A stretch of 64,000 nucleotides of DNA from Thermodesulfobacteriota bacterium (GCA_024274915.1 JAJSAC010000063.1:621-64620); one strand, 5' to 3'. Numbered from the stretch's first letter, positions 4,360 to 54,453 are shown. Notes: generated from the letters alone by a model not told the origin. Program-made: numbers and translations.

Positions 4360-4478
4360 CATGGAGGATCCCTTTGCCACGGGTTCAGGCAGCGTTCCAT
4401 TGAGCGTGTCTGTTTTGACTTAGGGGGAAGGTCTTACTGGATAACCTGGAAACCTTGTGAAGCCTTGCAGTGTTTTCC

Positions 4479-4733
4479 CAGGACTTCCCCCAAAATTCCC
4501 TTCCTGGTAAAGGCATCATGTTCAGAATCCTGGATTTTTTCTCTCCAACAAGTGAAAGGGCGGGGCATTCCTCCCTCCCTTGCCCATGGCTGATAGCTGA
4601 TGGCTCATGGCTCATGGCTGATAGCAACTGTGAGCTATGAACCATGAACTACGAGCTATGAACTATGAGCTATCATCTCTGCGTTCGGAACACCCCGCCC
4701 TGACCCATAGGACTAAAACTGGGGGAAGTCCTG
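4479..4733 (+). mobile_element. MITE copy 1 (255 bp)
   Basis: TIRs CAGGACTTCCCCCA...TGGGGGAAGTCCTG. Flanks GTGTTTTCC / GTGTTTCCC (9-bp duplication, 1 mismatch). Near-identical to 13657-13851 and 54190-54412. Confidence 0.9.
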
Positions 4734-4745
4734 GTGTTTCCCCCC

Positions 4746-4773
4746 TTGAAAATATTGGCCACAAGAGTATTCT
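4746..4773 (+). promoter_or_regulatory. Putative sigma70 promoter of the alaC-hom operon
   Basis: TTGAAA-N16-TATTCT upstream of the GGAGG RBS. Confidence 0.5.
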
Positions 4774-4811
4774 CACAGGACAAATCTTAAGAGTCGGAGG
4801 GACGTGGACCT

Positions 4812-6017
4812 ATGTTGGAGCGGGAGTTTTTGAGGATTAAGAGGCTTCCCCCTTACGTCTTCGCCATTGTGAATGACCTCAAGTACAAGGCAAGGCGTAG
4901 GGGAGAGGATATTATAGACCTGGGCATGGGGAATCCCGACATCCCCACCCCCACCCACATCGTGGACAAACTGGTGGAGGCGGCCAGGAATCCCAGGAAC
5001 CACAGGTATTCCAGCTCCAAGGGTATTCCCAAGCTCAGGGAGGCCATTTGCAACTGGTACAAGAGGAAGTTCAACGTGGACCTGGACCCTGAGACGGAAG
5101 CCATAGCCACCATTGGGGCGAAGGAGGGCATTGCCCACTTCACCCTGGCGGCCCTGAGGCCCGGGGATGTGGCTCTGGTGCCCACTCCCACCTATCCCAT
5201 TCACGCCTATTCCATTGTGATAGCTGGGGGCGATCTGAGGAGTGTGCCCCTTCTGAATGGCACAGACTTCTTCGAGAGCCTTATGAAGGCTGTGCGCCAG
5301 ACCTGGCCTGTGCCCGAGATGCTTATTCTGAGTTTTCCCCACAATCCCACCACCAAGGTGGTGGATATGGAGTTCTTCTATAAAGTGGTGGACTTCGCTA
5401 GGGATCACGACATCATTGTGGTCCACGACTTTGCTTATGCTGAGCTGGTTTTCGATGACTATTGCCCTCCCTCCATTCTCCAGGTTCCCGGGGCTAAAGA
5501 TGTGGCGGTGGAGTTTTATTCCCTCTCCAAGACCTATTCCATGCCTGGATGGCGGGTGGGTTTCATGGTGGGCAACTCCAAACTGGTGGAGGCCCTGGCC
5601 AAGCTGAAGAGTTACTATGATTATGGCATCTTCCAGCCCATCCAGATCGCCGCCATCGTTGCCCTTAATGGTCCCCAGGAGTGCGTTAAGGAGATCGTGG
5701 ATACCTATAGAAGAAGGCGAGATGTCCTGGTAGACGGCCTGAATCGCATAGGTTGGAGAGTGGAGAAGCCTAAAGGCACCATGTTTGTATGGGCCGAAAT
5801 CCCGGGCGAATATAAACACATGGGTTCTCTGGAGTTTTCCAAGTTTCTCCTGAAGGAGGGTAAGGTGGCGGTCTCTCCCGGCATTGGCTTTGGTTACAAC
5901 GCCGACGACTATGTGCGGTTTGCTTTGGTGGAAAATGAGCAGCGGATTCGCCAGGCCCTGAGGGGTATGAAGAAAGTCTTAACCCTGGGGGAGAAAAAGA
6001 AATGGGTGGCCGTGTGA
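4812..6017 (+). CDS. alaC: Class I/II PLP-dependent aminotransferase, AlaC/YfdZ-like
   Basis: [11 protein letters not shown]-terminus, [17 protein letters not shown] and the [17 protein letters not shown]-lysine motif. Conserved position upstream of hom. Confidence 0.8.
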
Positions 6018-7357
6018 GCCCGGAGTCTCCGAAAGGTCGTGGGACTTTTCGGGATGCTATTGGGATTGGTCTCATCGGCTTTGGCACTGTGGGCACTGGG
6101 GTGGTGCGTATTCTCATGGAGAAGGGTGAACTCCTCAAGGAGCGCTTGGGTGCCCAGCTGGAACTGGTAAGGATTGCTGATGTGGACCTGGTGAGACCCA
6201 GGGATGTCCAGGTGGACGCATCCCTTTTGACCACTGATGCCATGGAAGCCATTCACCATCCCCAGGTGGACGTAGTGGTAGAGCTTGTGGGTGGTATAGA
6301 GCCTGCCAAGAGCTTCATTTTGGAGGCTCTTGGGGCAGGTAAGCCTGTGGTGACGGCCAATAAAGCCCTCCTGGCTGAGGCTGGGGAAGAGATCCTTCGG
6401 GCCCTGGAAGAGACAGGTGTCGATCTGGGTTTTGAGGCCAGTGTGGCAGGAGGTATCCCTATCCTGAAGGCCTTGAGGGAAGGTTTGGTGGCTAACACTA
6501 TCTCCTGTATTTACGGTATTATCAATGGAACGGCCAATTATGTTCTTACCATGATGGAGAGGGAGAGGCTCTCTTTCCAGGAGGCTCTGGCCAACGCCCA
6601 GGCCGAAGGTTACGCCGAGGCTGATCCCACCCTGGATATCAGTGGTATGGACGCCGCCCACAAGGCTGCTATCTTGGCCACCATGGCCTTTGGACGCTAC
6701 TTCAAGGCCCAAGAGATCTATGTAGAGGGTATAGACCGGGTGGACTCCAAAGACATACTCTACGCCCAGGAGCTGGGTTATCGGGTTAAACTGCTGGCTA
6801 TAATAAAGGGCGGTGATCGGGTGGAGATTCGGGTTCACCCCACCATGATACCTCTGGACCATTCCTTGGCCAAGGTGGAGGGGGTTTTCAATGCCGTCTA
6901 CGTAGAGGGTGATGGGGTGGGCCCTACCATGTTCTATGGCCGTGGGGCAGGGGAGATGCCCACGGCCAGTGCTGTGGTGGCCGATGTGGTGGACATAGCC
7001 CGGGACCTTTTGAAGGGGGTGGGGCGCAGGGTGCCTCCGTTCTCCTATGATAAACTGGATAGAGAGGTGGCACTAAAGCCCATGGACGAGGTGGTGACCC
7101 GGTATTACATGCGGTTTACAGCCCAGGATCGTCCGGGGGTACTCTCCAAGATCTCGGGGATCTTGGCTTCCAGGCATATTTCCATAGAGTCGGTGATCCA
7201 GAAGGGACGCCGAGAGGAAGGTACGGTTCCTGTGGTGATGATGACCCACGAGGCTACGGAGAGGGACGTGAGGGAGGCCTTGGAAGAGATAGATCGGCTG
7301 GATGTCATTGGCAGGAAAACAGTTCTTATCCGGGTGGAGGACGGGGGAGGCTGGTAG
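6002..7357 (+). CDS. hom: Homoserine dehydrogenase with C-terminal ACT domain
   Basis: [45 protein letters not shown] and DRPGVL ACT motifs. Start may be GTG 6014. Confidence 0.95.
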
Positions 7358-7441
7358 TTTTTTCCTATTATCCCCCTTCTGAGTTGAAGAAATTTCTGTT
7401 TAGTATAGATTTTAGTTATCTGAATCCTGAAGGGGAGAGAG

Positions 7442-52318: not shown

Positions 52319-52375
52319 ATCTGTGGATTAGGAAGGCAAGGGGGGAGTCTTTTGGTGAGGGAGGTATAGGCAGAC

Positions 52376-54064
52376 ATGAGACTCTATCGAGAAGAGGCGT
52401 TGGAGGAGATAAGAAAGGACCTCCAGCAGTGGGAAGGGGTCACCCTTAAGAAGGTGTTGGAGAAGGCTCCTGAGCGCAGACCCAAGTTTGAGACTTTCTC
52501 AGGTATAGAGATCAAGCGGGTCTACACCCCTGCGGACCTGGAGGATTTCGATTACGGGGAGAGGCTGGGTCTTCCCGGGGAGTACCCCATGACCCGGGGC
52601 GTCCAGCCCACCATGTACCGGGGCCGGTTCTGGACCATGCGCCAGTACGCGGGCTTCGCCACCGCCGAGGAGTCCAACAAGCGCTACAAGTATCTCCTGG
52701 AGCAAGGCCAGACGGGCCTCTCTGTGGCTTTCGACCTGCCCACCCAGATGGGCTACGACTCGGACCATCCCATGGCCCGGGGGGAAGTGGGCCGGGTGGG
52801 GGTGGCCATAGATTCCCTGGCGGACATGGAGGTCCTCTTCGACGGCATTCCCCTGGACAGGGTCTCCACCTCCATGACCATCAACGCCACGGCTTCTATC
52901 CTTTTGGCCATGTACATCGCCGTGGGGGAGAAACAGGGGGTGGCTTCCGAGAAACTCCGGGGTACCATCCAGAACGACATCCTCAAGGAGTACATCGCCA
53001 GGGGCACTTACATCTTTCCCCCCTCGCCCTCCATGCGGATCATCACCGACATCTTCGCCTACTGTAAGGACTACGTTCCCAAGTGGAACCCCATCTCCAT
53101 CTCGGGCTATCACATCCGGGAGGCGGGTTCCACCGCCGTCCAGGAAGTGGCCTTCACCCTGGCCGACGGCATCGCCTATGTGGAGGCAGCTATCAAGGCG
53201 GGTCTCCACGTGGACGACTTTGCACCCAGGCTCTCCTTCTGCTTCAATGCCCACAACAACCTCCTGGAGGAGGTGGCCAAGTTCAGGGCGGCCAGGAGGC
53301 TGTGGGCCAGGATCATGAAGGAGCGCTTCGGGGCCAAGAGACCCCAGTCCTGGAGACTCCGCTTCCACACCCAGACAGCGGGTTGCACCCTCACGGCCCA
53401 GCAGCCCGAGAACAACGTGATCAGAGTCACCATACAGGCCCTGGCCGCTGTCCTGGGAGGCACCCAGTCCCTCCATACCAACGCCCTGGACGAGGCTCTG
53501 GCCCTGCCCACGGCCAAGTCGGCCATGATCGCCCTCAGGACTCAGCAGGTCATCGCCTACGAGTCCGGTGTGGCCGACACCATAGACCTCATGGCGGGTT
53601 CCTACGCCGTGGAGGCCATGACCGAGGAGATTGAGAGGAAGGTCCTGGAGTACCTGGACAGGATAGACGGGATGGGGGGCATGATGGCGGCCATTGAGGA
53701 AGGTTACGTCCAGAAGGAGATCCAGGATGCCGCCTATGCCTACCAGCTGGCCATAGACAAGAAGGAGCAGATCATCGTGGGGGTCAACGCCTTCCAGGTG
53801 GAAGAAGAAGAGGAGGAGCGGGAGATCCTCAAGATAGACCCCTCCGTGGAATCTGGCCAGATAGAAAGGGTGAGGGAGCTGCGCCAGAGGCGGGACAATG
53901 CCAGGGTGAAGAAGGCCCTGGAAGAGGTGAAACGGGTGGCCAGGGACGGTGGCAACATCATGTTCCCCATTCTGGATGCCGTCCGGGTTTATGCTACCCT
54001 GGGAGAAATCGCCGGGGCTATGAGGGAGGTCTTCGGCGAGTACCAGGAGAAGGTGGTCCTGTAG
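52376..54064 (+). CDS. mcm: Methylmalonyl-CoA mutase, substrate-binding (large) subunit
   Basis: TMRQYAGF with the Tyr typical of MCM rather than the Phe of [35 protein letters not shown]. No B12-binding domain. Confidence 0.92.
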
Positions 54065-54085
54065 TTGGCCAATCATTGCTTCAAT

Positions 54086-54125
54086 CGGGCCCTGGGGGAA
54101 TATCCCCTGGGCCCGGTTTTATTTC
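54086..54125 (+). terminator. Terminator after mcm
   Basis: CGGGCCCTGGGGG...CCCCTGGGCCCG followed by GTTTTATTT. Confidence 0.75.
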
Positions 54126-54189
54126 TTGGTAGCCATGGGAATAAGAATGAACAAAAAGGATCCGCTCTCAGTGTTGCCCCATAGGGAAT

Positions 54190-54412
54190 CAGGACTTCCC
54201 TCATTTTTGGTCTTATGGGTCAGGGCGAGGCGTTCCGACCGCAGAGATGATAGCTCATAGTTCATAGCTCACAGTTGCTATCAGCCATGAGCCATCAGCT
54301 ATCAGCCATGGGCAAGGGAGGAATGCCCCGCCTTTTCACTTGTTGGAAAGAAAAAATCCAGGATTCTGAACATGATGCCTTTACCAGGAAGGGAATTTTG
54401 GGGGAAGTCCTG
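54190..54412 (-). mobile_element. MITE copy 3 (223 bp, inverted)
   Basis: Reverse complement of copies 1 and 2. Perfect 9-bp target duplication ATAGGGAAT at 54181-54189 and 54413-54421. Confidence 0.92.
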
Positions 54413-54424
54413 ATAGGGAATCAT

Positions 54425-54453
54425 TTGCCTAACGGGTTTATCCTCCGTAAACT
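54425..54453 (+). promoter_or_regulatory. Putative sigma70 promoter giving a near-leaderless rqcH mRNA
   Basis: TTGCCT-N17-TAAACT ending 8 nt before GTG 54462; no SD sequence. Confidence 0.55.

Follow-up and report, generated by a model that had tools for sequence, protein, structure and literature searches.

A 64,000-nucleotide (nt) stretch of DNA from a Thermodesulfobacteriota bacterium (GCA_024274915.1, JAJSAC010000063.1:621-64620), referred to here as the window, carries three copies of a MITE (miniature inverted-repeat transposable element), each lying at the same short distance upstream of a hexamer that resembles the -35 box of a sigma70-type promoter. A reading of the window made from the sequence alone (the sequence-only reading) had taken these copies for a family aimed at promoters; the locus raises the question of whether insertion is directed to a fixed position relative to the promoter and, if so, by what kind of transposase. 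We observed a fixed insertion register, an orientation bias, promoter-like targets, empty sites in relatives, ends common to the MITE and a larger insertion sequence (IS), and the type of the transposase that this IS encodes; targeting of promoters in a fixed register by an IS4-type transposase acting on its MITE is very probably the explanation. The copies of the window, their target duplications and the adjoining boxes are as follows.

4479-4733, + strand: MITE copy 1, 255 nt, A end on the left and B end on the right, B facing the promoter
4470-4478, no strand: left target duplication of copy 1, GTGTTTTCC, 9 nt, one mismatch relative to 4734-4742
4734-4742, no strand: right target duplication of copy 1, GTGTTTCCC
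4746-4773, + strand: predicted promoter by copy 1, TTGAAA (4746-4751)-N16-TATTCT (4768-4773)
13657-13851, + strand: MITE copy 2, 195 nt, B end facing the box
13649-13656, no strand: left target duplication of copy 2, TTAAAGGA
13852-13859, no strand: right target duplication of copy 2, TTAAAGGA
13863-13892, + strand: -35-like box by copy 2, TTGCTA (13863-13868)-N18-TATCCT (13887-13892)
54190-54412, - strand: MITE copy 3, 223 nt, inverted, B end on the left and A end on the right, A facing the promoter
54181-54189, no strand: left target duplication of copy 3, ATAGGGAAT
54413-54421, no strand: right target duplication of copy 3, ATAGGGAAT
54425-54453, + strand: predicted promoter by copy 3, TTGCCT (54425-54430)-N17-TAAACT (54448-54453)

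The three copies, their ends (CAGGACTTCCC...GGGAAGTCCTG in all of them) and their duplications were re-read exactly as the sequence-only reading had described them, and their relatedness was borne out by a repeat finder. Between the right duplication and the hexamer stood 3 nt in each case, CCC before TTGAAA, ATG before TTGCTA and CAT before TTGCCT. The duplications, which for copy 1 together read GTGTTT[T/C]CC, differed among the copies, in agreement with the claim of a non-autonomous element that had entered by independent DDE-type insertions.

The window's genome is represented by a 2.03-Mb assembly of 77 contigs, on most of which the element was found by BLAST. A terminus was scored where the 14-nt end was matched with at most 3 mismatches and the inner 60 nt aligned to either end of copy 1, the end adjoining AAAATTCCC being designated A and that adjoining AGTTTTAG being designated B. 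The genome contained 125 such termini (61 A and 64 B), 123 of them with at least 60 nt of flank, and the family amounted to approximately 62 copies, 41 of them complete (195-295 nt), with a median pairwise identity of 0.906. The element had no coding capacity and was bounded by a terminal inverted repeat of 14-19 nt, CAGGA[C/G]TTCCCCCA..., the two ends being identical over their first 14 nt. Its strand folds into one long hairpin (z = -4.7), formed by 7-nt units, GCTGATA/GCTCATG, and their complements in the centre of the element (4580-4680 in copy 1), and the range in length is due to the varying number of these units. Contig ends stopped inside the MITE in 43 of 154 cases; promoter-targeted insertion would account both for these breaks in the assembly and for the position of the repeat ahead of many operons. 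Short elements possessing the same terminus and different interiors were seen in G000 at C64:19556, C74:5112 (reverse), C37:31881 and C55:150 (reverse), some of which have a GGGCGTTCCGA-CGCAG block in common with the B end of the MITE; the same terminus on different short interiors indicates that several MITE lineages use one transposase.

Target duplications were present in 25 of the 41 complete copies, exact in 22 and with one mismatch in 3, with lengths of 7 (2 copies), 8 (6), 9 (8), 10 (7) and 11 nt (2). In 21 of these 25, TTG began exactly 3 nt past the duplication, on one side or, in 2 copies, on both. Single intergenic positions carry TTG with a measured frequency of 0.0154, and with p = 0.0305 per copy the count of 21 has a binomial tail of 1.7e-28; the fixed register upstream of a sigma70-type -35 box, proposed from the three copies of the window, thus held genome-wide. 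Counted from the terminus, outward TTG starts numbered 5, 19, 24, 14 and 5 at offsets 10, 11, 12, 13 and 14, respectively, and 0 to 6 at any other offset between 0 and 40. The enrichment of TTG over intergenic sites that the sequence-only reading had suggested as a check was found as well: TTG at 10-14 nt occurred in 66 of 123 flanks, versus rates of 0.080 for 20,000 intergenic and 0.070 for 50,000 genomic positions drawn at random, and TTGAC in 25 of 123 flanks versus 0.004 at random intergenic positions. Given the constant 3 nt, the end-to-TTG distances (10-14 nt) vary as the duplication lengths do; of the two edges of the staggered cut, the one nearer the promoter is fixed and the far one loose.

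A box stood next to the B end in 46 of its 63 flanks and next to the A end in 20 of its 60 (Fisher p = 1.2e-5). The statement that the pattern holds for both orientations of the element is therefore true, with the qualification that the two are used unevenly.

The partner insertion sequence and its register in other phyla

The sequence-only reading had placed the transposase elsewhere, and this was borne out by an IS with the same terminal repeat. Termini without a match to the MITE interior defined two more ends, X and Y, both carrying the CAGGA[C/G]TTCCCCCA terminus in the window's genome; X was located on four contig ends, with TTGA at 11-13 nt in three of the four flanks, and Y on two. The last 139 nt of end X encode 38 residues that are 79% identical to the C-terminus of a protein designated P0003, whose gene lies in metagenome contigs (L118/L119) inside an IS of 1,488 bp, the left end of which shares 88% identity with Y and the right end 82% with X. 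Thus, X and Y are the two ends of one IS. This full IS came from the scan with P0003; an exact-pattern scan of the metagenome contigs with a stretch of end Y gave no match. Relatives of end X were present in G001, G004 and G005, G001 to G005 being genomes of the same genus or family as the window's organism, of which G004 and G005 belong to another genus. An open reading frame (ORF) of G004 that runs into an X-like end matched PF01609 and, below cut-off, several IS4/IS701 models; the PF01609 (DDE_Tnp_1) score on a transposase fragment of 233 amino acids was 23.3 bits with a cut-off of 23. Beside the X-like end in G001 (contig C44, approximately 2030-2670), two ORFs of 81 and approximately 125 amino acids were observed, which read like an antitoxin/PIN-toxin pair.

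A homologue search returned 347 proteins, mostly of 417-422 amino acids and on contigs of 1.4-1.7 kb, with PF01609 precomputed for most of them; the IS has one transposase ORF, of 418-422 amino acids. In 27 aligned transposases, Y306, R309, E313 and K320 were invariant, which corresponds to Y-(2)-R-(3)-E-(6)-K, the YREK signature. The sole PDB match of the transposase profile was Tn5 transposase (E 1.6e-6), and the top Foldseek matches of an AlphaFold model (mean confidence score, pLDDT, of 79.6) were full-length Tn5 transposase, with a template modelling (TM) score of 0.67 and E 1e-16. None of the curated NCBIfam models IS4_1 to IS4_4, IS701 and IS1634 was reached, the best scores being 48-64 bits with cut-offs of 100-250. 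ISAs1, ISLre2 and ISKra4 models were not among the NCBIfam matches at E<=0.001 of four full-length members; membership in these three families was rejected on this ground and, for ISLre2 and ISKra4, also on that of the Tn5 fold. By its signature and modelled fold, the partner IS, approximately 1.47-1.49 kb in length, encodes a Tn5-like DDE transposase of the IS4 type. The family guess of the sequence-only reading, ISAs1/IS4, was correct as to IS4 (PF01609, YREK and the Tn5 fold) and failed as to ISAs1.

The metagenome contigs L126-L131 contained elements of 440-486 bp that possess both IS ends and only the last approximately 100 codons of the transposase gene; these are internal-deletion derivatives, intermediate between the IS and the MITE. 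In L129 and L131, TTGACA was situated 12 nt from both ends.

Full copies of the IS in other organisms were collected from contigs of one genome per species, in which 383 IS loci were confirmed; 80 were fetched and 79 examined (L042 was skipped). With the conserved CCCCA core as anchor, the ends of 66 could be placed, and one duplicate site was dropped, leaving 65 copies, all of 1,451-1,486 bp except one of 1,354 bp, with CAGGA[C/G]TTCCCCCA or CAGGACATTCCCCA ends. An exact duplication was present in 47 copies from 16 genomes, with lengths of 8 (16 copies), 9 (20, the mode), 10 (6), 11 (2), 12 (2) and 13 nt (1). The 16 genomes were labelled Acidobacteriota, Aminicenantes, Thermodesulfovibrionales/Nitrospiraceae, Desulfobacterales, Eubacteriales/Clostridiales, Phycisphaeraceae and Alphaproteobacteria. 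TTG at +3 past the duplication occurred in 41 of the 47 copies, 38 times on the right, that is, on the 3' side of the transposase gene, and 3 times on the left, and the rule was obeyed by the majority of copies in 15 of the 16 genomes.

Three loci of the Acidobacteriota genome G041 (L057, L059 and L072) and one other (L043) consisted of full IS copies arranged head to tail with only a 9-10 bp duplication between them, as expected if the second copy was aimed at the same promoter as the first. G041, reached through L053, measures 8.7 Mb and gave four matches above the RpoD_Cterm cut-off; either it encodes several primary-like sigma factors or the bin holds more than one genome.

Target sites, empty alleles and neighbouring genes

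When the 66 box-bearing MITE flanks were aligned on TTG, C made up 44-62% in the four preceding positions, TTG was followed by A73 C52 A42, and a T/A-rich block began 17 nt past the hexamer; the corresponding logo for the IS copies was TTG A78 C57 A39. TANNNT at a spacing of 16-18 was observed in 20 of the 66 MITE boxes, versus 1-4 in each of seven other three-wide windows, and in 24 of 51 box-bearing right IS flanks, versus 2-7 at other spacings. On a crude longest-ORF map of the window's genome (1,834 ORFs, 89% coding and approximately 11% non-coding), the next ORF was co-directional for 45, convergent for 8 and overlapping the site for 13 of the 66 flanks with a box; the values for the 56 flanks with no box were 23, 18 and 15, respectively.

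Occupancy by the family also varied with the context of the hexamer. A -10 was present at 13 of 48 occupied TTGA sites versus 140 of 1,798 unoccupied intergenic ones. Among intergenic sites with versus without a canonical -10, those occupied were 7/45 versus 12/205 for TTGAC[AC] (p = 0.055), 10/149 versus 30/1639 for TTGA.. (p = 0.001) and 9/93 versus 14/944 for TTG[AC][AC][AC] (p = 7e-5). Occupied TTGAC[AC] sites numbered 4 of 1133 in coding and 19 of 250 in intergenic sequence, and a terminus of the family lay no more than 30 nt upstream at 8 of the 45 intergenic TTGAC[AC]-N16-18-TANNNT sites.

Empty sites, which the sequence-only reading had proposed to look for in related genomes, were found in sister genomes and in metagenome contigs. 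The site of copy 2 was empty in G001, that of copy 1 in G002 and G003, and that of copy 3 in G002. A contig of metagenome run X2 joins 13649 to 13853, skipping 203 nt that correspond to the 195-nt element plus one 8-nt duplication, with 7 letters at the joint fitting either side. A contig of 4,338 nt from run X1 aligns with 2918-4314 and resumes exactly at 4734, with 152 other letters between, and is therefore without copy 1. Both contigs come from metagenomes that hold small shares of the window's words, and they show the presence, not the frequency, of the empty form. The TTGAAA-N16-TATKCT by the copy 1 site was kept in G002, G003, G004 and G005, and TTGC[CT]T-N17-TA[AG]A[CT]T upstream of the gene behind copy 3 in G001, G002 and G004. 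In G004 and G005, a related element end is situated at the alanine-transaminase promoter, 12 and 11 nt, respectively, from the same TTGAAA; thus, this promoter has been hit more than once.

The genes situated 3' of the three copies are as follows.

4812-6017, + strand: alanine transaminase gene 3' of copy 1 (NF006033, 667.9 bits, cut-off 647)
13991-15364, + strand: TolC-family outer membrane protein gene 3' of copy 2 (TIGR01844, 138 bits, below the cut-off of 225)
54462-56165, + strand: RqcH/FbpA-like gene 3' of copy 3 (NF038240, 253 bits, and NF041120, 104 bits, both below cut-off)

The gene names given in the sequence-only reading fit these results, the first above and the other two below the curated cut-offs. 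Judged by its sequence in G001, the -35-like box by copy 2 probably does not represent a conserved promoter. Ahead of the TolC-family gene, TTGACA (13942-13947) is followed by an A/T-rich, partly palindromic block (TAATATAATGATATACTAATAT), both being kept in G001 and G002, and TATACT (13962-13967) lies 14 nt from this TTGACA, a spacing that is not canonical; judged by its sequence, the block at 13942-13967 may be the real promoter/operator of the TolC-family operon. Elsewhere in the window, a long array of direct repeats of 138, 276 and 282 nt occupies 1-2220 (families D1-D4, 61-97% identity to the reference copies) and looks like a repetitive coding region, and short arrays of a 7-nt unit, AGGCTAA/AGGCTAG-like (family D5), are located at 8669-8770 and 47573-47639.

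Mechanism and alternative explanations

The following course of events is proposed. The transposase of the resident IS would move the MITE in trans, since the MITE carries the terminal inverted repeat of an IS present in the genome. During integration, the transpososome would be positioned by the -35 element of a sigma70-type promoter, such that the staggered cut would have its promoter-proximal edge precisely 3 bp before the initial T of TTGACA and its other edge 7-11 bp further upstream (mode 9); after repair, the element and the -35 box would be separated by the duplication plus 3 nt. Of the two IS ends, the right one, which lies on the 3' side of the transposase gene and is equivalent to the B end of the MITE, is preferentially turned towards the promoter. 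The core promoter, from approximately 12 nt upstream of the -35 box onward, and the gene would be left intact, so that copies could accumulate.

Several observations weigh against this interpretation. Exceptions to the +3 rule number 4 among the 25 duplication-bearing MITE copies and 6 among the 47 IS copies; of the latter six, three run directly into the left end of another copy and one reads TCGACC. No duplication was found in 16 of the 41 complete MITE copies, two of which abut a contig end; of the 14 whose two flanks are present, 5 show a box at either end, 7 at one end and 2 at none, and these copies would fit an exchange of flanks through recombination between copies. Under the strict finder, 13 of the 79 IS loci were without ends and were left uncounted; a relaxed search of these gave nothing for 8 (several without flank) and ambiguous ends for L034, L037, L040 and L046, while the likewise uncounted L051 showed a 9-bp duplication with TTGAC at +4 on the left. 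As 26 of the 47 IS copies came from one genome, the count per genome is the fairer one. The target promoters are predictions from sequence: strict TANNNT at 16-18 was seen in only 20/66 MITE and 24/51 IS boxes, the gene map is crude, with 13 box flanks falling inside its longest ORFs, and the box by copy 2 is not conserved, the hexamer in G001 being TCCGCA. Finally, a PF01609 search of the window's assembly found nothing, and the IS interior, approximately 1.2 kb, is not in the assembly. Because that interior is unassembled, we infer a complete transposase gene in the window's genome from the two IS ends; both ends being contig ends, the empty search would reflect the missing interior rather than absence of the gene.

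Two alternative explanations were rejected. If the element inserted at random and selection kept the harmless copies upstream of promoters, coding sites would be almost never occupied, which was the case (4/1133 versus 19/250 for intergenic TTGAC[AC]). However, an insertion would do as little harm at any spot in the non-coding part of the genome (approximately 11%), and selection cannot yield a register of single-base precision, 21/25 and 41/47 compared with 0.0154 per random intergenic position; this explanation is therefore highly improbable. That the -35 box belongs to the element itself, as an outward-facing half promoter, would be in line with the outward -35 boxes generally known on many IS elements, but the duplication does not include the box, the copies differ in the duplicated sequence between terminus and box, and the empty alleles in G001, G002, G003 and the metagenome contigs, in which the box is kept without the element, refute it; hardly any likelihood is left to it. 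A third alternative, that the target is some other feature coinciding with promoters, such as DNA that is bent, curved or unwound upstream of -35, or a nucleoid protein bound at that place, draws on IS231A, an IS4-family member reported to prefer bent targets (cited in PMC2266710), and on the C-rich 3-4 nt before TTG in the window's genome. The C-rich tract is, however, weaker in the cross-phylum set, and in both logos only TTG and the following A are near-invariant, which makes this alternative unlikely.

Within promoter-register targeting itself, two ways of sensing the -35 box have to be weighed, with a smaller share of the probability left to others. That the transpososome itself reads the -35 DNA, a possibility to which we would give nearly an even chance, is favoured by the very high TTG content of the targets and by sites like that of copy 2. 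Alternatively, the transposase would be tethered to the sigma/RNA polymerase holoenzyme sitting on the promoter, the register reflecting the geometry of the protein complex. Such a tether would agree with the more frequent occupancy of hexamer-matched intergenic sites that have a canonical -10, with the graded preference at positions 4-6 of the hexamer (A > C > A), which mirrors natural promoters, and with the spread of the rule over hosts of many phyla, which have nothing but the sigma70-type machinery in common; moreover, the predicted protein is a plain Tn5 fold, to which no further domain for reading DNA is added. The -10 association, however, could also reflect better retention at real promoters, or weaker hexamer contexts at the sites without -10; TTG in approximately 85% of targets is more than consensus statistics would lead one to expect of natural promoters; copy 2 adjoins a box that is not a conserved promoter; and a few insertions are found by boxes inside the crude ORFs (4 of 1133 coding TTGAC[AC] sites). 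When an Acidobacteriota transposase was co-folded with the primary sigma factor (region 4) of its own genome, the score was 0.00, which counts neither way. Tethering is on these grounds tentatively retained as an appreciable possibility, clearly short of an even chance.

Comparison with known systems

With IS4 elements as defined in PMC2266710, including the YREK signature, and with Tn5 (IS50), the present family shares PF01609, the spacing Y-2-R-3-E-6-K, a single ORF, duplications of approximately one helical turn and the Tn5 fold. Unlike them, it scores far below all curated NCBIfam subgroup cut-offs (best 64 bits against 160) and has duplications of variable length (7-13) with one edge fixed. 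Promoter targeting is not mentioned in the available portions of the IS4 review PMC2266710, and neither IS4-type promoter targeting nor the terminal repeat was reported in the open-access literature searched, ISfinder, TnCentral, subscription journals and the supplements of PMC3942029 lying outside that search. That IS4-type promoter targeting is both real and undescribed is, on balance, our expectation.

We consider it rather likely that a widespread Tn5-like (IS4-type) clade, with a range that reaches from Acidobacteriota and Nitrospirota to Firmicutes and Alphaproteobacteria, has acquired on its own the targeting of the -35 box with single-base precision, that this is a second, convergent origin of such targeting in bacteria, and that its MITEs occupy approximately 1 in 6 consensus promoters of a 2-Mb genome. 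It would show convergent evolution of a 'safe-haven' strategy outside the Mutator-like lineages and, given the existing structures and biochemistry of Tn5, whose superfamily is structurally the best understood, would offer a tractable enzyme for studying the way in which promoters are located by a transpososome. Should the -35 box (or sigma region 4) be read by the transposase itself, the enzyme would be a small and ready-made relative, directed to promoters, of the Tn5 transposase that genomics employs, which suggests a compact tool for promoter-directed insertion. The insertions would also serve as a natural marker of promoter positions in uncultured phyla without start-site data.

Fixed positioning relative to a target is known from other elements. 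The yeast retroelements Ty1 and Ty3 likewise integrate at a set place upstream of transcription units, a 'safe haven' that spares genes; they are, however, retroelements of eukaryotes, and their integrases are tethered to the Pol III machinery, whereas for the present family a tether is only a possibility. IS elements targeting repetitive extragenic palindromic (REP) sequences and IS1202-type elements by dif sites resemble it in their fixed orientation and distance from a short recurrent motif, whereas their targets are repeats or recombination sites and their transposases are of other types.

The closest parallel, drawn already in the sequence-only reading, is with the TnGBS integrative conjugative elements and with ISLre2, which together with ISKra4 form a group with Mutator-like transposases. 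Elements of this group insert 15-17 bp upstream of the -35 box of sigmaA promoters, a specificity called unique or atypical and attributed to two Mutator-like lineages; the right repeat adjoins the promoter, with a looser orientation in elements whose two repeats resemble each other (PMC3942029). Common to both are thus DDE elements inserted in an oriented manner at a fixed distance upstream of a sigmaA/sigma70 -35 box, and a right-end bias, which in the present family amounts to 38 right versus 3 left for the IS and, for the MITE with its more similar ends, to 46/63 versus 20/60. In contrast, the transposase is Mutator-like (p-MULT) there and of the Tn5/IS4 type here; the end-to-TTG distance is 11-13 bp here, with a full range of 10-14 nt and a mode of 12, instead of 15-17 bp; the hosts span many phyla, whereas ISLre2 is reported to be almost confined to Firmicutes (PMC9208149); and only the present family is set apart by a high-copy MITE with the same specificity. 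The functional part of the parallel therefore stands, while the enzyme superfamily and the distance differ, and the family works like TnGBS, ISLre2 and ISKra4 without being a member of their group.

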